This document shows positions 3,284 to 20,306 of a DNA stretch of 64,000 bases, one piece after another. Both the position numbers and the translations under genes were made by a program. The notes beneath the pieces are model-generated. The model made no database searches. It saw only the letters and a program-made list of their open reading frames with translations, and was not told where the DNA came from. Origin of the DNA: an uncultured cyanobacterium (GTDB taxonomy: Bacteria > Cyanobacteriota > Cyanobacteriia > Cyanobacteriales > Cyanobacteriaceae); contig CAVVOP010000017.1 of the NCBI GenBank assembly GCA_963749915.1, positions 60,538 through 124,537 of the forward strand. The letters run 5' to 3'. Every line of letters begins with the position of its first letter. The first letter of the stretch is position 1.

Positions 3284-5905
3284 ATGAAAATCCTTAAAAC
3301 ACAAACTTTACGTGGCCCTAACTATTGGAGTATCAGAAGACAAAAACTGATCCAGATGCGTCTTGATTTAGAAGATGTGGCCGAAAAACCATCTAACCTA
3401 ATACCGGGATTTTATCAGGGTTTAGTGAAGATACTACCCTCCCTCATTGAACACTTTTGTTCCAAAGATCGCCGCGGTGGATTTTTAGAACGGGTACAAG
3501 AAGGAACATATATGGGTCATATAATAGAACATGTTGCCTTAGAATTACAAGAATTAGCGGGGATGGCGGTGGGTTTTGGTCGTACCAGGGAAACGGCGAC
3601 ACCGGGAGTCTATAATGTTGTTTTCGAGTATGTGTATGAAGAAGCGGGAAGGTACGCTGGTAGAGCGGCTGTGAGATTGTGTAATTCCATTATTACCACC
3701 GGAAGTTACTCCCCTGAAGAGTTAGGGCAAGATTTAGCTGATTTAAGAGATTTAAGGGCGAATTCGGCATTAGGTCCTTCCACCGAAACTATCGTTAAAG
3801 AAGCCGACGCTCGACAAATACCTTGGATGTTACTAAGTGCAAGAGCTATGGTACAGTTGGGTTATGGGGCAAATCAACAACGTGTTCAAGCTACTTTAAG
3901 TAATAAAACCGGTATTTTAGGAGTAGAGTTAGCTTGTGATAAAGAAGCTACTAAAACCACTTTGGCGGAGGCCGGTGTTCCCGTTCCCAGAGGTACTGTA
4001 ATCTATTATTTAGATGAATTAGCCGATGCCATTGCCGATGTTGGCGGTTATCCCATTGTACTCAAACCCTTAGACGGGAATCATGGTAGGGGCATTACCA
4101 TTGATATTAATACTCAACAAGAGGCAGAGGAGGCTTATGATTTGGCTAGTGCGGCTTCTAAAAGTCGCTCAGTAATTGTGGAAAGATATTATAAAGGGAA
4201 TGATCATCGCATTCTCGTGATTAACGGTAAACTCATCGCCGTATCCGAAAGAATCCCCGCCCATGTCACCGGTAACGGATACTCTACCATTGAAGAATTG
4301 ATCGAACAAACTAATTTAGATCCCCATCGAGGAGAAGGTCATGATAATGTATTAACCAAAATTAGTGTTGATCGTACTTCTTTAGGGATACTGAAAAAAC
4401 AAGGTTTTGACATGGATACAGTACTCAAAGAGGGAGAAATAGCTTATTTAAGGGCTACCGCCAATTTAAGTACTGGAGGTATCGCTATTGATCGCACAGA
4501 TGAAATACATCCTGAAAATATTTGGATAGCCGAAAGAGTCGCCAAAATTATCGGCTTAGACATCGCCGGGATTGATGTTGTGACACCTGATATCACTAAG
4601 CCTTTGAAGGAAGTAGATGGTGTCATTGTGGAAGTAAACGCCGCCCCCGGATTTCGGATGCATGTAGCACCCAGTAAGGGTTTACCTCGTAATGTAGCCG
4701 CCCCTGTGTTGGATATGCTTTTTCCTGATCACAAATCTAGCCGTATTCCTATCCTAGCGGTGACAGGTACTAATGGTAAAACCACCACTACCCGATTATT
4801 AGCTCATATATATCGCCAAACGGGTAAAGTTGTGGGTTATACCAGCACCGATGGTATTTATTTGGGTGACTACATGGTAGAAAAAGGAGACAATACAGGT
4901 CCTCTGAGTGCCGGAGTTATTTTAAGAGATCCGACGGTAGAAGTGGCAGTGTTAGAATGTGCCAGAGGTGGAATACTGCGATCGGGTTTGGCCTTTGATA
5001 GCTGTGACGTGGGTGTGGTTCTTAATGTCGCAGAAGATCATTTGGGCTTAGGGGATATTAATACCATTGAGCAGATGGCAAAAGTCAAAGGAGTCGTCGC
5101 CGAATCCGTCAACCCCGATGGCTATGCGGTCTTAAATGCTGACGATCCCTTGGTTGCACAAATGGCTCAAAATGTCAAGGGTAAAATTGCTTATTTTTCC
5201 ATGAGTGCCGATAATCCTATCATCATCGATCATTTACGCCGTGACGGCATGGCGGCTATTTATGAAAACGGTTATCTCTCGATTTTTGAGGGAGAATGGA
5301 CATTAAGGATTGAAAAAGCGGAAAATATCCCCGTCACCATGAAAGGCATGGCACCCTTTATGATTGCCAATGCTTTAGCAGCTTGTTTAGCGGCTTTTGT
5401 TCACGGTACAGATATTGAGTTAATTCGTCAGGGGGTGCGGACTTTTAACCCTGGTACGAGTCAAACTCCGGGGAGAATGAACCTTTTTGATCTGAAAGAT
5501 TTTTCTGTACTCGTCGACTACGCCCATAATCCTGCTGGTTATCTAGCAGTAGGGGAATTTGTCAAAAACTGGAAAGGCGATCGCTTAGGGGTAATTGGAG
5601 GACCTGGAGACAGACGTGATGAGGATTTTATACTGTTAGGTAAAATTTCTTCTCAGATTTTTGATCACATCATCGTCAAAGAAGATGATGATAATCGTGG
5701 TAGAGATCGAGGAACCGTGGCAGACTTAATCGTTCAAGGTATATTAACCGAAAATCCTCAAGCTAGTTATGACGTTATTCTCGATGAAACCGAAGCCATC
5801 AAAAAGAGTTTGAACAAAGTTAACAAAGATGGTTTAGTAGTGATTTTCCCTGAAAGTGTAACTAGATCGATCTCCATAGTTGAAGAATATAAGTCGGATG
5901 GATAG
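3284..5905 (+). CDS. cphA: Cyanophycin synthetase
   Basis: 873 aa starting MKILKTQTLRGPNYWS; ATP-grasp domain (KPLDGNHGRG, EVNAAPG) plus Mur-ligase domain (GTNGKTTT, DYAHNP). Confidence 0.98.
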   Translation: MKILKTQTLRGPNYWSIRRQKLIQMRLDLEDVAEKPSNLIPGFYQGLVKILPSLIEHFCSKDRRGGFLERVQEGTYMGHIIEHVALELQELAGMAVGFGRTRETATPGVYNVVFEYVYEEAGRYAGRAAVRLCNSIITTGSYSPEELGQDLADLRDLRANSALGPSTETIVKEADARQIPWMLLSARAMVQLGYGANQQRVQATLSNKTGILGVELACDKEATKTTLAEAGVPVPRGTVIYYLDELADAIADVGGYPIVLKPLDGNHGRGITIDINTQQEAEEAYDLASAASKSRSVIVERYYKGNDHRILVINGKLIAVSERIPAHVTGNGYSTIEELIEQTNLDPHRGEGHDNVLTKISVDRTSLGILKKQGFDMDTVLKEGEIAYLRATANLSTGGIAIDRTDEIHPENIWIAERVAKIIGLDIAGIDVVTPDITKPLKEVDGVIVEVNAAPGFRMHVAPSKGLPRNVAAPVLDMLFPDHKSSRIPILAVTGTNGKTTTTRLLAHIYRQTGKVVGYTSTDGIYLGDYMVEKGDNTGPLSAGVILRDPTVEVAVLECARGGILRSGLAFDSCDVGVVLNVAEDHLGLGDINTIEQMAKVKGVVAESVNPDGYAVLNADDPLVAQMAQNVKGKIAYFSMSADNPIIIDHLRRDGMAAIYENGYLSIFEGEWTLRIEKAENIPVTMKGMAPFMIANALAACLAAFVHGTDIELIRQGVRTFNPGTSQTPGRMNLFDLKDFSVLVDYAHNPAGYLAVGEFVKNWKGDRLGVIGGPGDRRDEDFILLGKISSQIFDHIIVKEDDDNRGRDRGTVADLIVQGILTENPQASYDVILDETEAIKKSLNKVNKDGLVVIFPESVTRSISIVEEYKSDG

Positions 5906-5915
5906 GAATTAATAA

Positions 5916-8237
5916 TTATTTGATGACACTAGCACTACCGTTTTTATTGATGTAAGGTTTAAAACCACAAGCTATCAGAGATGAGTACAGAATAAGGTCA
6001 ATATCCCACACATTAAACATCCATTGAACTAGCTCCATTTTCCAGAGGCTAACATGGATCTCTAAAATTTTAGCCCCTAACTCTGTGGAGATTCCCCTTA
6101 CATGGAAAATCCCATCTTTTAAGGTAAGATTATGGCACGCTTTGCAAGCGGCGTAAATCAAATTTTCTTGTCTTTCTTTATCTAAAGAACTCCCTAGGAT
6201 TTCTGTCCTTTCTTGAGCCTGATTAGACTCAGTGGCGAACTGAGGAATTGGATACCCCGCCAGCAATTCTCCTTGAGACAATATCAGAAGCAGATCCTGA
6301 GGTAAGCCATTTAGGTATGGACTGGCAATTAGGTGATCCTTTACGCCTAATTTAATCCCTGTATCTATGATGGTGTGAAGTTCCTTTTGATAGTCTACAA
6401 AACAAGCTAACAATTGTTTTTGGGTGGTAATAATTTTGGGTACAAAGTTAGAATTCCCTGAATCTAACTTGATCAGTAAGGGATAGTAATGAACTGGAAT
6501 TTGGTGGATATCATGGAGAGAATGGAGGGCAAAAACCTCAACTCCATGAGAGAATTGTCGAGCTTCAAAAATTAGTTTATTAAACTCATCAAGAAGAATT
6601 TTTTTTGACATTAATAATTGGCTTTTAGCTAGGGTTACGCTCTCATAGCTATTACTAGGTTTTTGCAAGAAAATAGCGACTAAAGTGGCTAAAACTAGAT
6701 AGTTTTCTTCAAGGGAAACTACTCCATGAATATCGAGTTGATGGTGACGTACTTCTTGAATAATAGCGAGGGCCTTTTCAAGCTCCTTTCGGGAGTCATC
6801 AAGGTCAATACCTAAAAACTGAGAAGGAAAACTGAGAGAGTAAGATAAAGGCTGATTATTCGCCAAAATTTGGTTAATCCCCAGCTTTGCCGCCCATTCA
6901 CAGCCCTTGAGTTTTTCCTTACCACTACCACCCAGGATCAGAATATTTTGTCCTTCTAGCATATATTGGTAAGAACGGTATAACATGGTTTCTACCCATT
7001 TATCCAGAATCATAGTCCCATGAGGGGAATGTTGAATTTCATACAATTGCAATGTGCTAGTGCAATCATGATTATTAACTTCTATTAAAAAGGGTTCTAA
7101 TTGACCATTGTTGTTTTGCAAAAAAACATCTAAGCCAATAAAATTCGTTTGCTGATGGGGAGGAAGATGGTTTAAATATTGCTTTTCGTAGTCAAGAATG
7201 GAGCAGAGAACAGTTTCTCCTAATCTATTAAGTTGGTCAGTCAACTGATTTTTTTGGTGGTCAGTTAACCCCATACAATTACACAGATAGTCAAGAGAAA
7301 AACTTTCAGAAGTATCTCCGTTGATTGGTTGATCAACATAGCCAAGACTACAAAGAATACCAGAGGTTTCTACTAAGTTATTAGGGCGACGGGTAACAAA
7401 TATTCTTAACCTTGCCCCTAGACAGTGATGAGCCTTAAGACTTGAATCAATAAATTCTTCTACCAACAAGCACTCCTTCTCACAGAGCAAATCTAGACAT
7501 TTTTGCAGATTTTCTATTGCCCGCTCTAAATTATCTTTTGACTCGATGGTACATACTTTACCTCCCATCCACCTAGCACCTGAAGGCTTAATCACGAATT
7601 TATCACAAGGAAAATTTTGAAGATATTGTCGGATTTCCTCAAGAGAGGGTTTTTGAGAAAGATCAACCAACTGAACTCGATCACTGGCTGGATGATGATG
7701 ATATTTTTCCAAACCAAAGCTAAAAGCTATGGTGAAGGGAACACAGATTTTCTTAGCTACAGCCAGTAAACGAGTATGCAATTTATCATCGACATACTCA
7801 TTTAATTCGACGCTACTGGACATGGGACAGTTCGTCGGTTTTTCATAGTTCTGAAATTGATGGGCTTTCTGTTTTAAAGCTGGGGGAGAAAAACTGAATT
7901 TTTCTTCAGTTAAAAAATTGCACAAAAAAGTAACCTTCTGAGGAGTTTTGAATTTGACATAAAAACATTGCCCCCATTCATTCATGGTAATTCCTTCGAG
8001 AAGATATAAAAAGTTTTCTTCCTCCTTTCTAATAACCTTTATCCAATTTGGTTCGCAAACCACAAAAGCATTTTCGGGCAAGATTTTGTTGGCGGATAAC
8101 AGTAAAGCAACTCTTTTTTCTGGCTCGGAAAAAAAAACGATGCAGGGTTGACTAGAATCGGATTTTCGTTCTACCAATGTTGTTAACATCGGGTTAAGTC
8201 TATAGGAAAAGAGAACTGAGTTAAGATTATCAAACAT
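5916..8237 (-). CDS. Two-domain ATP-grasp protein, carnosine synthase (CARNS1/ATPGD1)-like
   Basis: 773 aa (alternative start 8189). The first ATP-grasp domain has FVIKPSG, LLVEEF and FIGLDV...LIEVN. The linker is VETMLYRS...EGQNILILGG. The second ATP-grasp domain is degenerate and ends LIACGFKP. Confidence 0.75.
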   Translation of the reverse strand: MFDNLNSVLFSYRLNPMLTTLVERKSDSSQPCIVFFSEPEKRVALLLSANKILPENAFVVCEPNWIKVIRKEEENFLYLLEGITMNEWGQCFYVKFKTPQKVTFLCNFLTEEKFSFSPPALKQKAHQFQNYEKPTNCPMSSSVELNEYVDDKLHTRLLAVAKKICVPFTIAFSFGLEKYHHHPASDRVQLVDLSQKPSLEEIRQYLQNFPCDKFVIKPSGARWMGGKVCTIESKDNLERAIENLQKCLDLLCEKECLLVEEFIDSSLKAHHCLGARLRIFVTRRPNNLVETSGILCSLGYVDQPINGDTSESFSLDYLCNCMGLTDHQKNQLTDQLNRLGETVLCSILDYEKQYLNHLPPHQQTNFIGLDVFLQNNNGQLEPFLIEVNNHDCTSTLQLYEIQHSPHGTMILDKWVETMLYRSYQYMLEGQNILILGGSGKEKLKGCEWAAKLGINQILANNQPLSYSLSFPSQFLGIDLDDSRKELEKALAIIQEVRHHQLDIHGVVSLEENYLVLATLVAIFLQKPSNSYESVTLAKSQLLMSKKILLDEFNKLIFEARQFSHGVEVFALHSLHDIHQIPVHYYPLLIKLDSGNSNFVPKIITTQKQLLACFVDYQKELHTIIDTGIKLGVKDHLIASPYLNGLPQDLLLILSQGELLAGYPIPQFATESNQAQERTEILGSSLDKERQENLIYAACKACHNLTLKDGIFHVRGISTELGAKILEIHVSLWKMELVQWMFNVWDIDLILYSSLIACGFKPYINKNGSASVIK

Positions 8238-8354
8238 CTAAAACTTTAATTTTCTAGTGAATTTATACAGGATTATGGTCTAGTGGTTGAATGCAGAATT
8301 AAGAATGTAGAATGCACCATGAAAAACCCTTTATTTTGAGTACTTATACGAATT

Positions 8355-10058
8355 TTAAACCCCTGTTTCATTTCCGCACTTTCTCACTAGTCTCACAGGA
8401 CAGCTAACGGTTCCTGCCCTTTCCGCCACTGCCGTTACTTCAATTTCACTGCCTTCTTGCCCTTTCACTACCCACTCCAAATGTCGGCGGAAATCTGTCC
8501 CTAGTGCCAAAGCCTCAAACGCTTTGTTAGATCGTCCCTCCAGATGGTCAATTTCCTGTTTCAATTGACCACTGATTAAGGTAACTCCTTCTGGTAAGGA
8601 CAAAATCACTTCAATAGGGCGAACAGACTGCCGTTCTAAAGCTTTTTGACTGGTATAAGTGGGCAAGAAGCCTTGATTTTCCCACTGGACCACAATATGA
8701 TAAATATCTCCTCCTTGATAGGTAACTTGAGTGCGAGCAAGTGCTAATCTGGGAGACATTAGGGCATGGGTAATAGCAAAGTGACATTGTTTGTCGCACA
8801 AGTCAGGTAAGTATTCGGCGGGAGCATTTTGCCAAACTGCTTTCTCATCCCAGCCACCAATTTCCACCTCTCCTAATTGGGGATGGTGAAAAGGCTGCCA
8901 AGGAATAAAGCCTTTTCCTCCTAGCTTTTCATCATTCCACTGTAATAATTTCAAGGATTCTTCGGGAGGATGCCAGCGAAACCATTGGATATAATCTTCC
9001 TTTTCAATTCCTGCTTCAGTTGGCGCATCCCAAAGTTCGATGGTGAAACCAAACCAACCAAAGTGATCGTACCCATAATCATCCATAGAGCCATAAATTA
9101 CTTCTTTGGGATGATAACGAAAGTCATGATAAACAGAAACGCACTTGTAACCTGTTATTTCCGTTCCTTGTTTGCCAATCAGTTTATAAATTTCTAAATC
9201 TTCCGTGGGGAAATGTTCATCGCCATGAGTGCCATAAGGACGCAAGATGACGGCAGAGTAAGTGTGATAGCTAATAAAGCCATTGATGTTTCGATTTTGA
9301 TGCCAGAACTCAGCTTCGGCACGGGTTTCTGGCTCAGAAAAAGGAAATTCTCCCGCCCCTTTTTGTTGACTTTCTGGCGACCACTGGTGAGGATAGTTGC
9401 GATTGAAGTCCATGCCTTCTAGGGGTGCAGCTAACTTGATTTGGTATCCGTCGTAGTTGCGGATTATTCCTTCGGGGAGGAGGGTATAATAAGTGCCTCC
9501 AAACTCAGGAGGTTCACGATGTACCATTAGGCGGGGATCTAGCTCTGAGACTTTCCAAGCCCCACAGTCATCTTGAATGCGCATTTGCAGAATTAAACCA
9601 TCACCATTAACATCTTGCCGATGGAGTCCATCTTCTTCCTCAGGATAGGGATAAGGACGAACGCTAGAGCGGAGTCGGTAAGGCGTAGTTAGATACTTTT
9701 CCGCCCCATCAACTGCCAAGCGAGGCAGGACATAAACCGTGTAGTGATCGAGCAAACGTGTGGCCTGAGAATCTTGATGGTAATTAGTTAGCAGGTAATA
9801 GATGATGTAGCAGGCTACCGATGAACCAGTGACTTCCCCCGCGTGGGTATTAGCATCAATCCAATAGGCAGGTTTTTTGAGCGGGTTGCCTGTCTCTTGA
9901 TTGGTAAGAATAGCTAACCAAATGTCCCGCCCTGCATAACTACGACCGATAACTTTCAACTGAATCAGTTTGGGATAAGTCTTAGCCATCTGGTTGAGGT
10001 AATCTACAAGTTCTTGATAAGTGTAGTAGTGACTAAAATCAAAATATTTAATCGTCAT
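8355..10058 (-). CDS. M14 family zinc carboxypeptidase
   Basis: HxxE zinc motif (THAGE), DFNRNYP, SYHTYS and catalytic TIELW. No signal peptide, so likely cytoplasmic. Confidence 0.92.
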   Translation of the reverse strand: MTIKYFDFSHYYTYQELVDYLNQMAKTYPKLIQLKVIGRSYAGRDIWLAILTNQETGNPLKKPAYWIDANTHAGEVTGSSVACYIIYYLLTNYHQDSQATRLLDHYTVYVLPRLAVDGAEKYLTTPYRLRSSVRPYPYPEEEDGLHRQDVNGDGLILQMRIQDDCGAWKVSELDPRLMVHREPPEFGGTYYTLLPEGIIRNYDGYQIKLAAPLEGMDFNRNYPHQWSPESQQKGAGEFPFSEPETRAEAEFWHQNRNINGFISYHTYSAVILRPYGTHGDEHFPTEDLEIYKLIGKQGTEITGYKCVSVYHDFRYHPKEVIYGSMDDYGYDHFGWFGFTIELWDAPTEAGIEKEDYIQWFRWHPPEESLKLLQWNDEKLGGKGFIPWQPFHHPQLGEVEIGGWDEKAVWQNAPAEYLPDLCDKQCHFAITHALMSPRLALARTQVTYQGGDIYHIVVQWENQGFLPTYTSQKALERQSVRPIEVILSLPEGVTLISGQLKQEIDHLEGRSNKAFEALALGTDFRRHLEWVVKGQEGSEIEVTAVAERAGTVSCPVRLVRKCGNETGV

Positions 10059-10258
10059 AAACAATTCCCCACTTAAAATGCGGTGGTTCTCCTTCCTACT
10101 TAATAATTAAGATAACACTTTCAGAGCAATAAAAATGCCTAACCGAGCAGTATTGCCCATCTCCCCGCAAGATAATTTCCACATCTGATCATGCTTTTTT
10201 TAACCGCCAAAATAACCATCTTAATAAGCCAATTATCCCCTTTCCTCAATCATCATCC

Positions 10259-10864
10259 CTATGGGATCATCTTTTTTATGGAGTTCTCTAACTTAAAATC
10301 TACCCTTTCATACAAACCTGGAAACGAAATTTCAAAATCAACTGAAGCTAATTTTAAAACAGCTTTTTCTCCCTCATAATCATTGAAAAGCCATTTTTCA
10401 TCTTCTTGCTTAAAATATTGAGCAATATAAAATCGATATTGATCTATTAAAATATATTCCTGAAATTCAGGTATAGAACGATAATATCTAAATTTATCTG
10501 TCCAATCATAGTCCCGTGTTGATTTAGAAAGAACTTCTACAATGATTGAGGGATTGGTTACGTTTACCGTACCTTTTCCCTCATAGATTGGTTTTCCTTT
10601 CATTACCATCACGTCAGGATAGGTGTAGAAGCGATATTCCGCTATCCACAAGCGAACATCATTGATATAGATATAATAATCTTGATTCTCAATTGTCAGA
10701 GGAAATTGGCGACAGAAATTGAGCGCGATTTGATTGTGATTTGTCGTTCCCCCTGTCATAGTAATAATTTTTCCATCTCGATATTCATGTCTGTCCACCG
10801 CTTTCTCTTCTAATGCCAAGTATTCTTCGGGCGTGTAGTATTTTTTGTCGGTTTGAATAACCAT
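10259..10864 (-). CDS. Uma2 family endonuclease (PD-(D/E)XK)
   Basis: YTPEEYLALE..., YTYPDVMV, IIVEVLSKST and YRSIPEFQEYILIDQ motifs. Confidence 0.92.
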   Translation of the reverse strand: MVIQTDKKYYTPEEYLALEEKAVDRHEYRDGKIITMTGGTTNHNQIALNFCRQFPLTIENQDYYIYINDVRLWIAEYRFYTYPDVMVMKGKPIYEGKGTVNVTNPSIIVEVLSKSTRDYDWTDKFRYYRSIPEFQEYILIDQYRFYIAQYFKQEDEKWLFNDYEGEKAVLKLASVDFEISFPGLYERVDFKLENSIKKMIP

Positions 10865-15400: not shown

Positions 15401-16033
15401 CAATTCGTCCCCGAAAAACTCTAATCTGACAGGTAATTCCGCCGAAACGGGAAAAATATCGACTAAATTCCCCCTTTTTCCCCATTGTCCTTCAATTTCT
15501 ACCAGATTAACTCGCTCATACCCCATCCTCGCTAAAGTTAAATCAATGTGCTTACTATCAAAATTCATGCCCTTGTTCAAATTTAAGCAATAGTCAGCAA
15601 ACACCGAGGACGGAGGTAAATGAGGTTGAAGGGCCTTTTCGGTGGTGACAACGGCAACAGGAGTTGTTGGGGAATTACATCTAATACTCGTATCATCCTG
15701 ACCGAGAAGACTTAAAAGGGTCTGCATTTGCCCCCAAATCATCTCAGATTCACAATTAAAATGCTCATAGGGTGTTGCTTCAGAGGTGGGATAGAAAAAA
15801 ACTTGTTTCCAGCCCATAACCTCAATATTTGCCACCCAACGGGCAGCTTCTTCTAGGGTAGCGCACACTACAAGTAAGTTTTTCTTCTCTCCTTGGGCTA
15901 TAGCAGAGATAACTAAACCTTTAGGTAATCGAGCAACACCTTGTAAGTTAAGGATTTTGAAGGTGTTGAGTTTCTGGGTTAATTCTGTGGTTAAAGGTGA
16001 ATTTGCGATGTTACGGAGGACGGAGTCGAACAT
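12440..16033 (-). CDS. mfd: Transcription-repair coupling factor
   Basis: UvrB-like N-terminus, CarD/RID domain ([10 protein letters not shown]), [24 protein letters not shown] and TRCF C-terminal domain. Start placed at MFDSV. Confidence 0.97.
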
Positions 16034-16107
16034 TGACGATTGTAGTTTCTGAATTTCCCTACTCATAATTAACTATTAATTATAGTCCCACAACTCACTT
16101 AAAATTG

Positions 16108-19100
16108 CTATATTGCTTCAACAAATTGCCAATAATCATCATACAATTGGCGATAGTCATAATTTTTAGCTAAATTTTTGGCATTTTTTGAAATATAGCC
16201 TAATTCCTGATTGTTGATTAATAATTGTGAGATAATATCTGTGTATTTAGTTAAGTTATCTTCAATTATTGCCTGAATTTGATGATCAACCTTATAACCA
16301 CGAAAAGCAATATTTGTACCTAAAATAACTTTACCAAAACTCATGGCTTCCATTATTTTTAGAGATGAACCGGTACCAGACAACATCGGTGCTAAAATTA
16401 ATTTAGCTTGTTGATAAACTATGATTAATAATTCTACATCCACTTTTCCCAGGGAGACAAAGTTATCATTATTTTCTGCTTGGCAACAACTACCAATCAA
16501 AATAAATTTACAAGGAGGTTGATATTTTTTTTCTCGATAATTAGAGGCTATTTGTCTAATTTCTTTCACCGCTTGAAGATTCGGAAAATGTGCACTTCCC
16601 ACGAATAAACAATAATTTTCTGTTAGCCAAGGATAGATATTAAGCCATTTTTTGTGATTATTAATAGCTTTTTCGCTGACAGATAAATCCAGGTTAACAG
16701 GATTAGGGATAACTTTACTATTTATATCCCATTTATGTAAAAATTCCTGATCTTCTTTAGATACACATACTACTTGATTCCCTGTTTTTAAACTGGAGAT
16801 TTCTTCTGCTAATAAAATTTTATAAATAGGGGCGTTTACTGATACCTGTTGACATAAAATATCATGGGCGGTAATAATTAATTGAACTTTTTTTTCCTGA
16901 CAAATTTTACTGATAGTTTTCCCCCAAAAGGGATATTCTAACATAACTATATCTGCCCAATTTGTTATTTTTTCTAGCCATTTTTTAAAGTTATCATCAA
17001 AGCGAAATTGATTGTACATACTTAAGCGCCAATCTTCTTTAATTTGTTCGATATTTTCCTCTTGTTTTTGACTATTTTTCTTATTATCACCATCAACCTC
17101 TTTTAATTGATTGGTATTAATTAAGGAATCATAACTACTAGTATAAACTTGGTTAACTAATTCTGAATAGTCAAAATTTTGGGCATAAAAACTATAACGT
17201 ACATTATCTAAAATTAACTCTTTTTCTCCACCAATAGTAAATAACCATATAGAATTACCTTTTTTTTCTAGGTAATCAATCAATAACCCTACCCGTTGAC
17301 TTGCCCCCGCTTTTCTTTCTAAAATGTCCCCCCAAGGATACAATATCGCAATTTTTTTCCCTCCTTCACTAAGGTTATTTTTTACTCGGCGATCCCCTAG
17401 GGTCACTTTTAAAACATCATTAATTATCTGTTGATATTCTGATTTATGATTACCCCAAATCAAATCTATAACTTTACTATTTTTTATCCACTTATTTTCA
17501 AATACTAAGTTATTAAAACTTGGTAAATTGTAAGCAAATAAATGAGGATGATAATTGATAATTTTTTGAGCATGATGTTGATGATTGGCTATAATAACTT
17601 TTACCTGACTGAATAAATTAAATTCTTGTTTTAATTCTTGCTGATCAGTTTCTTGATTATTAATAATGGCATATTGATAAGATTGTAAATAAGATACTTG
17701 ACAGATAACAGGAATATTATTCAAACCCATTTTATTTACTAAAATCTGATTAGTAATAGAGTCAATAAAAACACTATCTAAATTTTCCTTTTGTAGATAA
17801 TTAATTAAACTATCAGGAATCAATAGACTATTAGCATCAATTAAGTTTCTGGTAAAAGTTATTTCATTATGAAAAACATTACCAAAATATTTTTGCTGAT
17901 TTAAACCTTTAATAAATTCAGGGAACTTCCCTAATCTTAAAAACCAAATATTTTCAAAATTACAGTAATTTAAGATGGAAGAAACTTGTTGTTCAAAATT
18001 GTTATGACTATCTCCATTTAATTCTGAATTAAGAGAATAAATAATTAGATAAATTTTATAACCTAAATCTGATAAATATTGTAAATGACTGATAATAACT
18101 TGTCCATGAATATCTAAATTCAGTAAATTATTACCTCTAATAATAGCTAAAATTTTGGGATTATTTACTAAAGGCTGTATTTTTTGTTCACCTTCTGAAT
18201 TATTCAACAAATTATCAGTAAAATCGACTTTTGATAAAAGACAATCTATTAAACTATCAGGAGAATGTTTTTTACACCAATTAATACTAAATTTCTGAGC
18301 ATTTTTTTTGTACTCATTAATATTGTCAATTACATGGATAATCGTTTGGCTAATTTCTTGGGGATGTTGATAAATTCCCCCTCTACTTTTATCGACTTGA
18401 CTGGCCAACCAACTATTGGCAGGCACAATTACAGGTTTTCCGGCAGCTAAAGATTCCGTTAAAACCCCCGAAGTTCGATAACGATAACTATTAACATCAT
18501 AGGGAATAACTAACAAATCTGCACTCATTAATAAGTTATAGTATTCCTCTGTTGTTATGGGATTTTTGATAATTTTAACTATATCTTGGGGATATTCTTC
18601 AAGTTTTAATCGACTGGCTAAAATCCCTCTTTCCCCAGCATTAATATTAAAGTTAGATTGAATTGTTATCCTAATTTTTTTTGTGATTAAATAATCTTTC
18701 CATAAGTCAGCTACTATTTGTGGTAAATATAAATAACCTTTTTCAATTCTAGCATCACCTAAATAAACTAAATGTAAAGATTGATTCTCTGTTTTTAAGG
18801 TTATAGTTTGTTGTAAATTTTCTTGTCTAAATGGTACAGGTATTTCTATTAGTTTAACAGGGGAAAGATTATTATAACGCTCAACTAATTGTTGTGTATC
18901 CGTATAAAATCTTACTTTTTGCGGAAATAATTTACATTGATAAAATTGAGTTAAACAAGCACTAATACCTATTCCTTGAGCATTCTTAACTAAACAATCG
19001 TCAATATCTCGTCTTAACATTATATGATATTGTGGTAAATTATTTAATTCTTTTTTTTGTAAAAAATATAATATTTTTTCCAATTGTTCTATGCTTAAAG

Positions 19101-19725
19101 TATGAATAAAAATATGATCATCACTAGTAATTTGTAAGGAATTAATGGTTTGATTAAAAGATTCAATAAAGCTATCATTAAAGATGATTAATAATCTTTT
19201 AATAATTTTATGGATGACTTTTTTAATAATTTTAATATTAAATCTAATTATACCCCAAATTATTTTTGATATTCCCCAAAGAGTATTAGTAAAAGGAATA
19301 TACTTAATTAAATTGATGTCCTCTTTAATCCATTGAGTTAATCTGAATAAACTACCTTCTACTTTTCCTAAAAATCCTCTTGTTTTGGGTTGAGTTAATT
19401 TTAGTTTAAAAATTTGATAATTAACCTTTTCTTGATAATGTTTAATCCGGTCAGCTAAACTGGAATCGTCTTGATTATTAATAAAGTTTTTAAGTTTTTT
19501 TTGTATAAAACTTAATTTTTGAGTAGAGTTATTAAACCAATCTACTTTAAAGATAGAAATTACTTTAATATTATTAGGATATAAAGAAGAAGAAAAATTT
19601 TTATTAGCGATAATAAATACTTTATAACCACGCCTTTGAGCCGCCTCCGCTACCGATAAACTGCACTCGTAATGGTGGCCTTGTAAATCCTGTAGAGAAT
19701 GATCAATAATAATAAATCTTTTCAC
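16108..19725 (-). CDS. Large multidomain GT-B (family 4-like) glycosyltransferase
   Basis: Two GT4 donor-binding C-lobes (YLGDARIEKG...SGVLTESLAAGKPV and FVGSAHFPN...GSSLKIMEAMSFGKVI). GTG start at VKRF assumed. Very AT-rich. Confidence 0.85.
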   Translation of the reverse strand: MKRFIIIDHSLQDLQGHHYECSLSVAEAAQRRGYKVFIIANKNFSSSLYPNNIKVISIFKVDWFNNSTQKLSFIQKKLKNFINNQDDSSLADRIKHYQEKVNYQIFKLKLTQPKTRGFLGKVEGSLFRLTQWIKEDINLIKYIPFTNTLWGISKIIWGIIRFNIKIIKKVIHKIIKRLLIIFNDSFIESFNQTINSLQITSDDHIFIHTLSIEQLEKILYFLQKKELNNLPQYHIMLRRDIDDCLVKNAQGIGISACLTQFYQCKLFPQKVRFYTDTQQLVERYNNLSPVKLIEIPVPFRQENLQQTITLKTENQSLHLVYLGDARIEKGYLYLPQIVADLWKDYLITKKIRITIQSNFNINAGERGILASRLKLEEYPQDIVKIIKNPITTEEYYNLLMSADLLVIPYDVNSYRYRTSGVLTESLAAGKPVIVPANSWLASQVDKSRGGIYQHPQEISQTIIHVIDNINEYKKNAQKFSINWCKKHSPDSLIDCLLSKVDFTDNLLNNSEGEQKIQPLVNNPKILAIIRGNNLLNLDIHGQVIISHLQYLSDLGYKIYLIIYSLNSELNGDSHNNFEQQVSSILNYCNFENIWFLRLGKFPEFIKGLNQQKYFGNVFHNEITFTRNLIDANSLLIPDSLINYLQKENLDSVFIDSITNQILVNKMGLNNIPVICQVSYLQSYQYAIINNQETDQQELKQEFNLFSQVKVIIANHQHHAQKIINYHPHLFAYNLPSFNNLVFENKWIKNSKVIDLIWGNHKSEYQQIINDVLKVTLGDRRVKNNLSEGGKKIAILYPWGDILERKAGASQRVGLLIDYLEKKGNSIWLFTIGGEKELILDNVRYSFYAQNFDYSELVNQVYTSSYDSLINTNQLKEVDGDNKKNSQKQEENIEQIKEDWRLSMYNQFRFDDNFKKWLEKITNWADIVMLEYPFWGKTISKICQEKKVQLIITAHDILCQQVSVNAPIYKILLAEEISSLKTGNQVVCVSKEDQEFLHKWDINSKVIPNPVNLDLSVSEKAINNHKKWLNIYPWLTENYCLFVGSAHFPNLQAVKEIRQIASNYREKKYQPPCKFILIGSCCQAENNDNFVSLGKVDVELLIIVYQQAKLILAPMLSGTGSSLKIMEAMSFGKVILGTNIAFRGYKVDHQIQAIIEDNLTKYTDIISQLLINNQELGYISKNAKNLAKNYDYRQLYDDYWQFVEAI

Positions 19726-19826
19726 TTTATTTTTAACAAACAAAATTAATAATTGATGGATAATATTATCTAGCAAATAGGTCCTTTATCAGCTAAATTA
19801 GAGAATAAATTAACGAAAGGATTATC

Positions 19827-20306
19827 ATGATTAGAATTGGCAATGGTTACGATTTACACCGATTAGTTGAGGGTAGAAAACTTATTTTAGGTGGTATAAA
19901 AATAGATCATCATCTCGGATTATTAGGTCATAGTGATGCTGATGTTTTAACTCATGCTATCATGGATGCTTTATTAGGTGCTTTAAGTTTAGGGGATATT
20001 GGTCATTATTTTCCTCCCACTGATCCCCAATGGGCAGGGTCTGATAGCATGGATTTGTTGGCTCAAGTACATCAATTAATCCTCGATCGAGAGTGGATTA
20101 TTGGTAATATTGATAGTGTGATAGTGGCAGAACGCCCTAAATTAAAACCTCATTTACCTGCCATGATTAATTCTTTAGCCCAAAAATTGGCGATCGCACC
20201 TGATAAAATAAGTATAAAAGCGACAACCAATGAAAAATTGGGTCCTGTAGGTAGAGAAGAAGGGATTTGTGCCTATGCAGTAGTGTTATTATGTCAAGAT
20301 AATTAA
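19827..20306 (+). CDS. ispF: 2-C-methyl-D-erythritol 2,4-cyclodiphosphate synthase
   Basis: [20 protein letters not shown] and KATTNEKLG motifs. Confidence 0.97.

Follow-up and report, generated by a model that had tools for sequence, protein, structure and literature searches.

Vertebrate carnosine synthase (CARNS1, also ATPGD1; EC 6.3.2.11) is a protein of two ATP-grasp domains, of which the C-terminal one is generally taken as catalytic; the N-terminal domain makes up half of the chain, and no role for it was found in the literature searched. Enzymes of the ATP-grasp class form an acyl-phosphate which is then attacked by an amine (PMC3249071, available portion), and the vertebrate enzyme joins beta-alanine to His, Lys, Orn or Arg as the C-terminal substrate (PMC6920838, available portion). 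A relative of this enzyme, here called the ligase, is encoded in a 64,000-nucleotide stretch (the window) of contig CAVVOP010000017.1 from an uncultured cyanobacterium (assembly GCA_963749915.1, positions 60,538 to 124,537). It shares the two-domain architecture of vertebrate CARNS1 and is collinear with it over 740 residues, but the opposite site is intact and the C-terminal domain is absent, and carnosine synthesis by it is unlikely. With a probability of roughly 0.55, we propose that it is a single-site ATP-dependent amide ligase descended from a two-site ancestor of the CARNS1 family, which lengthens a peptide-like acceptor from the carboxyl end and is paired with an M14 zinc carboxypeptidase. 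This is the best explanation for the fold, residue pattern, selection, tree position and gene linkage observed, from which chemistry and substrates are extrapolated. The gene and its parts are:

5916..8237, minus strand: CARNS1-family ligase gene, 773 aa; N site intact, C site decayed, C-terminal domain absent
6966..8147, minus strand: N-terminal ATP-grasp domain, residues 31-424; ArgX/LysX/RimK/GshB-like, predicted active
7074..7082, minus strand: E386-V-N388 metal-binding motif of the N site, assigned by motif
5922..6962, minus strand: C-terminal L-amino-acid-ligase-like domain, residues 426-772; catalytic residues decayed, ending before the C-terminal domain of L-amino-acid ligases (LAL)

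The open reading frame begins with ATG at a position that agrees with the starts of its homologues, and the gene is present as a single copy in its genome. The first-pass annotation, made from the window's sequence, had proposed an end-to-end homologue of CARNS1 with block-by-block alignment, and both claims were borne out: BLASTP against the bat protein P0082 (NCBI name carnosine synthase 1), used as the mammalian reference in place of human CARNS1, gave 164 bits (E 5e-46) with 179/776 identities (23%) over residues 33-770, and all ten proposed blocks are in register. An exhaustive phmmer search of 1.84 billion representatives recovered bat CARNS1 at E 3.6e-38 and 227 representatives at E <=0.001. 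Among the 23 of 150 listed matches for which names were looked up are bat and bowfin CARNS1, a mussel protein, a euglenid protein, long Elusimicrobiota proteins, and carnosine synthase 1-like proteins from chiton, octopus, snail, brittle star and ribbon worm. Profile libraries proved less informative: no Pfam model scored above its cut-off (PF14397, 20.7 bits for a cut-off of 31.4; PF18130, 19.5 for 27), the RimK and GshB models of Pfam did not match, nor did any NCBIfam model, and a sequence search of the Protein Data Bank gave weak matches, mostly repeat noise. No solved CARNS1 structure was found by sequence or fold search. Full-length collinearity and the presence of two ATP-grasp folds, the C-terminal one of LAL type, make the ligase a member of the CARNS1/ATPGD1 sequence family. 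It is a variant of a known family and, as far as sequence can tell, neither a carnosine synthase in the enzymatic sense nor an ancestor of carnosine synthase.

An AlphaFold model of the ligase (mean predicted local distance difference test score, pLDDT, 87.5; predicted template modelling score 0.90) was compared with 48,161 solved chains, and contains two ATP-grasp folds, at residues 31-424 and 426-772. The N half matches ArgX (Z 22.0, rmsd 3.3, 273 residues aligned), LysX/ArgX (Z 21.9), RimK (20.9), GshB (20.9) and DcsG (20.8), with TTLL11 lower (19.0), and its look-alikes in the Atlas are ATP-grasps of YheC/D and RimK type. It thus shares with the RimK/LysX/ArgX/GshB ligases a fold (Z 21-22) and the K...K, RxR, GxD and ExN elements, but at only 11-14% identity; unlike them it is fused to a LAL-type domain, and no carrier-protein gene was seen near the ligase. 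The C half belongs with the L-amino-acid ligases BacD/YwfE, 3vot and RizA (PF13535 and PF18130), with Z values of 26.2 for 3vot (297 residues aligned), 25.9 for BacD and 22.5 for RizA and a weak profile match to BacD (E 0.007); it shares their fold (Z 26) but has lost their E-x-N-x-R, EHD, glycine loop and C-terminal domain. Its alignment to 3vot stops at chain residue 335, compared with 376/394 residues (Z 35.2) for the model of the two-site relative P0028. Judging from these models, the C-terminal domain of about 85 aa that follows the LAL core in the two-site relative and in animals is lost from the ligase. Since the halves match different fold classes, the protein is a fusion of two classes of ATP-grasp domain; a reading by tandem duplication was rejected on the same ground, and the tandem halves of the first-pass annotation have to be abandoned.

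The state of the two sites was assessed in columns at least 90% conserved among 29 two-site sequences (29 columns in the N half, 48 in the C half), of which the ligase keeps 29/29 and 24/48, respectively. In bat CARNS1 the balance is reversed (N 18/29, C 45/48), as it is in bowfin (N 15, C 37). The N-site residues of the ligase are K152, K217 (window position 7589), E260, R276, R278, D370 (7130), E386, N388 and D391, each of which is present in 24/24 sequences of the ligase's clade and hence invariant over sequences at 60-78% identity. Roles such as ATP-binding lysines, adenine-loop Glu, metal Asp and E-x-N were assigned by motif, not by atomic superposition; the residues expected of an active ATP-grasp member are all there (K152, K217, E260, D370, E386, N388), and the canonical K, D and E-x-N set described earlier is thereby upheld. 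In the C half, the changes relative to the two-site consensus are K540Q, E646P, H647Q, D665P, E714R, N728H and R730S; the glycine loop that followed K590 has also gone, so the intact LAL site of carnosine synthase (K, EHD, DxxP, NxE, ExNxR) is not found. The earlier statement that the C domain had lost its key residues needs correcting for K590 and E726, which remain in the ligase, as does D648. Across the clade K590 is found in 3/24, E726 in 2/24 and N728 in 2/24, and E646, H647, D665 and R730 in 0/24. With the N site intact and the C site decayed, the product is probably something other than carnosine, as was first suggested.

Bat CARNS1 keeps the equivalents of K217, D370, E386 and N388 in its N site and has R for K152, C for R278 and L for D391. 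The mammalian N site appears eroded and partly decayed, and may be dead, as we infer from these replacements; the pattern agrees with the C domain being the catalytic one in vertebrates. More fully decayed N sites than in mammals were seen in bowfin, snail and ribbon worm (P0077, P0081, P0091, P0120), the fourth member of this set coming from a sturgeon-labelled contig flagged as a contaminant.

A table of site states for 166 sequences, selected by coverage, contains two-site, N-only and C-only members. Both sites are kept in many relatives, among them molluscs, a euglenid, other bacteria and cyanobacterial proteins of 857 aa. The 51 close relatives, of which 31 were aligned, include a long class of about 855 aa, mostly intact at both sites, and a class of about 765 aa whose C site has decayed. 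The ligase is 46-57% identical to the long cyanobacterial forms, and its N site is essentially identical to those of the 857-aa proteins and of the CARNS1-like proteins of chiton, mussel, octopus, snail, brittle star and euglenid, most of which differ from it in keeping both sites and the C-terminal domain. Among shorter proteins, a search for stand-alone N domains gave 14 matches, and the two inspected are partial pieces of the long form. P0064, P0078, P0086, P0089 and others like them in the Elusimicrobiota, as well as P0084, carry CARNS1-like double ligases within long proteins of 1,087-5,940 aa, and in these the first Arg of the N-site RxR is replaced.

To keep C-site decay from shaping the trees, only the N half was used for them: a quick tree of 79 rows and a careful one of 25. 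The ligase's clade (support 100/100) is nested within a cyanobacterial clade whose deepest branches, like the outgroups, are two-site proteins, and the C site was therefore lost secondarily. Together with the vertebrate pattern, this points to reciprocal loss of sites from a two-site ancestor. Other C-decayed forms (the P0037 group, P0043 and P0048) fall elsewhere in the tree, requiring three changes; multiple independent losses of the C site are suggested only, as a single loss is not rejected (approximately unbiased test, p 0.09). Two of the first-pass ideas do not survive this comparison. A domain swap is not peculiar to this gene, since the two-site state is widespread and the C site was lost secondarily, and there is no direct bearing on the origin of CARNS1, since in the quick N-half tree (unrooted, with long-branch warnings) the cyanobacterial clade is not sister to the animals.

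Upstream of the ligase lies the proposed partner gene:

8355..10064, minus strand: M14 zinc carboxypeptidase, 569 aa (PF00246, E 1e-56), upstream of the ligase on the same strand

Its zinc and catalytic motifs are intact (H74, E77, H267; N-R-N at 221; E343), and among solved structures it is closest to carboxypeptidase T. At the specificity-pocket position, perhaps equivalent to residue 255 of carboxypeptidase B (CPB), it has an Asp that aligns with the Thr-to-Asp site of the carboxypeptidase T mutants 4iav and 3prt, which we take to be imitations of CPB, although a single residue does not fix specificity. From the genome collection 13 loci were obtained, 7 of them in the ligase's clade, giving 8 clade loci with the window. 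In 6/8 of these the M14 gene lies upstream on the same strand, adjoining the ligase in 4 and separated from it by one DUF3800 gene in 2; of the others, the genome of L008 has its M14 elsewhere (86% identity), and the contig of L007 starts inside the ligase gene, and no M14 was found in that bin. Identity among the linked M14s is 84-89%, and they fall in a single clade (support 100). The ligase family occurs in 2/401 genomes of the phylum, its own included, and neither the ligase nor the M14 gene was found in any of 19 other genomes of the host family. As the M14 is missing there too, the two genes probably arrived together. One of the loci, L003, is labelled Rhizobium, yet both its ligase gene (42% GC) and its M14 fall among sequences from cyanobacteria, and it is probably a mis-binned contig. 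M14 homologues with one in-frame stop inside the matched span were seen in three cyanobacterial genomes (L024, L025, L041).

In the proposed reaction, the N domain would bind ATP-Mg and phosphorylate the carboxylate of an acceptor, as ATP-grasp chemistry implies, and the amine of an amino acid would then attack the acyl-phosphate. In RimK, LysX/ArgX and GshB alike, what is extended is the carboxylate of a peptide or protein, and from the fold class the acceptor would be a pre-formed peptide, an acyl-amino acid or a protein C-terminus, and not free beta-alanine. It is very probable that the N site is an active ligase; by analogy with the fold class, a peptide-like carboxylate is the probable acceptor, at a lower level of confidence. 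The weakest step is the added residue, tentatively a basic one (Orn, Lys or Arg), suggested because the family uses His, Lys, Orn and Arg and because of the Asp in the M14 pocket. A protein C-terminus as the target seems improbable. The C half would no longer ligate and would be kept as a structural or binding partner, and the co-inherited M14 would remove C-terminal residues, which is the reverse reaction; ligase and M14 would then constitute an add/remove or make/trim pair. An analogous add/remove pair is that of a TTL/TTLL ligase with a cytosolic M14 carboxypeptidase (CCP); the likeness lies in the pairing of an ATP-grasp ligase with an M14 peptidase, and the differences in the lower Z value of TTLL11 (19.0) and the closeness of the present M14 to carboxypeptidase T.

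Several observations weigh against this proposal. The count of conserved columns is partly circular, since the 29 reference sequences were chosen for intact motifs, and the Z values of the N half are almost tied across several classes of ATP-grasp enzyme. ArgX, LysX and RimK add acidic residues, which does not speak for a basic one here. The M14 subfamily is found in 28/401 genomes, against 2/401 for the ligase family, and thus occurs mostly without the ligase; the pocket Asp is common to most of the unlinked M14s whose motif was retrieved, which means that it is no adaptation of the pocket to the ligase. Because the linked loci are kin, they count as a single acquisition, maintained over time. 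Finally, no PF13535 ligase or separate C-type LAL ligase was found elsewhere in the genome, and a two-site copy is missing from 8/8 clade genomes, the present one included, so that a beta-Ala-X dipeptide as acceptor would be without an obvious source.

The first of four competing explanations turns on beta-alanine. In it, the N site would have taken over from the C site in making a carnosine-like dipeptide from free beta-alanine (alternatively gamma-aminobutyric acid) and an amino acid, which we consider unlikely. The beta-alanine source gene panD lies directly upstream of the long-form ligase gene in 3/5 loci (L004, L006 and L010, the last cut by a contig end), the window's own genome has a panD, unlinked to the ligase, and searches there revealed nothing else that could supply a dipeptide acceptor. 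However, the link to panD is absent in 8/8 clade loci; the fold class that forms dipeptides, LAL, is the dead half; and the N site differs very little from its counterpart in two-site proteins and thus shows no sign of re-tooling. The position of panD beside the cyanobacterial long-form genes also fits a two-site enzyme in which beta-Ala-X would be made at the LAL site and extended at the RimK/GshB-like site.

Near the long-form ligases (Pfam was run on one representative per cluster of neighbour genes) are Ddl-like ligases, ATP-binding cassette transporters and nonribosomal peptide synthetase genes of A-MT-T-TE organisation, but not M14 genes. Clusters of the panD type (L004:7371-18143, L006:1645-16787, L010:1139-3781) are candidates for a beta-alanyl peptide product, and L006 (Floridaenema) has, besides its two-site copy, another paralogue, in which the C site has decayed and the N site is a variant one. 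In a Microcoleus variant (L009:94-10574, L011:2453-10574) an ectoine-synthase-like (ectC-like) gene stands directly upstream of the two-site ligase; Ddl-like ligases and an extracytoplasmic function sigma factor occur in both, and an amidinotransferase-like gene in L009.

Next, the C half may still work, either with its chemistry altered or as a module, allosteric or nucleotide-binding, that controls the N site. Ratios of nonsynonymous to synonymous substitution (dN/dS, NG86 estimates) for 7 genes of the ligase's clade in 21 pairs were 0.18 for the N half and 0.28 for the C half, the C half being higher in 21/21 pairs, and for two-site genes (9/10 pairs) 0.12-0.23 and 0.15-0.28, respectively. 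Purifying selection acts on both halves, and the relaxation of the C half is modest. This constraint, the intact fold in the model and the retained K590, D648 and E726 are what a working C half would lead one to expect, but the constraint fits a structural role as well, and the scarcity of K590, E726 and N728 and the loss of R730 across the clade, together with the missing C-terminal domain and two C-site loops (627-632 and 668-681) below pLDDT 50, a level to which no segment of the P0028 model falls, make such activity distinctly unlikely.

It is very unlikely that the ligase is the functionless remnant of a biosynthetic cluster in decay. In favour of such a reading, the family has a rare and patchy occurrence, the ligase locus lacks the partner genes seen in long-form clusters, and two relatives are disrupted: P0019 (97% identical) has a frameshift near residue 495, and in Rhizonema (L013:5866-8438) a gene with a decayed C site and a retained C-terminal domain is split by a frame break in the C half near residue 460-490. 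However, the tail of P0019 leaves and re-enters the frame, a behaviour expected of an assembly error, which this may be; the N-site residues are invariant in 24 sequences, with dN/dS 0.18; and the link to M14 has been kept. DNA contigs aligned to the region, of fragmentary coverage, showed no net frameshift in the ligase gene itself.

The last explanation concerns cphA, the neighbour on the other side, listed here with a short repeat from the upstream gap:

3284..5905, plus strand: cyanophycin synthetase cphA (TIGR02068), convergent with the ligase, stop codons 10 bp apart
8289..8314, no strand: short intergenic repeat in the M14-ligase gap, 18 genome-wide matches at <=2 mismatches

An accessory role in cyanophycin metabolism, making or recycling beta-Asp-Arg, is suggested by the adjoining cphA and by the M14 pocket Asp, which would suit a C-terminal Arg, but it has very little to recommend it, since cphA is convergent and hence not co-transcribed, lies beside the ligase in this genome only and in none of the other loci, and is followed by a different flank in each of the 4 same-genus genomes with sequence there; the link was judged incidental.

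In the present genome cphA is separated from cphB, which lies on another contig (C5); in the 4 same-genus genomes with listed reading frames, cphB is directly upstream of cphA. The intergenic repeat is probably unrelated to function; loose contig ends pile up around it, at 8280 and 8313. A promoter scan stayed at chance level (12 found, 12.9 expected). Upstream of the M14 gene, at 10259-10864, is a Uma2-family gene, and a gene similar to it by eye precedes the M14 in L012. The window at 16001-20000 has a GC content of 25-30%, compared with 37.5% genome-wide, and is a possible acquired island.

Setting the alternatives aside for the preferred single-site ligase, a wider scheme for the family can be put forward with due reserve. 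The tripeptide beta-Ala-Orn-Orn occurs in Corbicula clams (PMC13256729), and ATPGD1 homologues are expressed in bivalves (PMC3595286, PMC5504028); the available portions of these papers, of PMC6920838 and of PMC3249071 contain no link between a CARNS1/ATPGD1 enzyme and the clam tripeptide. The CARNS1 family may, as a tentative possibility, have been at its root a two-station tripeptide synthetase, in which the C domain would make beta-Ala-X and the N domain would add a further residue (as in beta-Ala-Orn-Orn); vertebrates would then retain a C-only remnant, and the cyanobacterial clade an N-only remnant, redeployed with M14 as a write/erase pair that acts on the C-termini of peptides or proteins. 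For bacterial CARNS1 homologues, the roles of the two domains and reciprocal site loss, nothing was found in the literature searched, whose coverage excluded most subscription papers, including the original identification of CARNS1. That paper may already discuss the domains and mollusc homologues.

Bacterial homologues are automatically labelled 'carnosine synthase' in IMG, and the present comparison suggests that such database labels on bacterial proteins cover at least three catalytic states. In the ligase's clade the CARNS1 N domain occurs naturally in single-site form, in an expressible bacterial protein, and from it the work of the animal enzyme's front half, so far little understood, could be learned; the two-site, N-only and C-only members of the family make up a natural dissection kit for the function of that domain. 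Comparing the three forms would test the descent of CARNS1 from a tripeptide synthetase, could name the enzyme that makes the tripeptide of clams, and would define a cyanobacterial metabolite or C-terminal modification so far uncharacterised.

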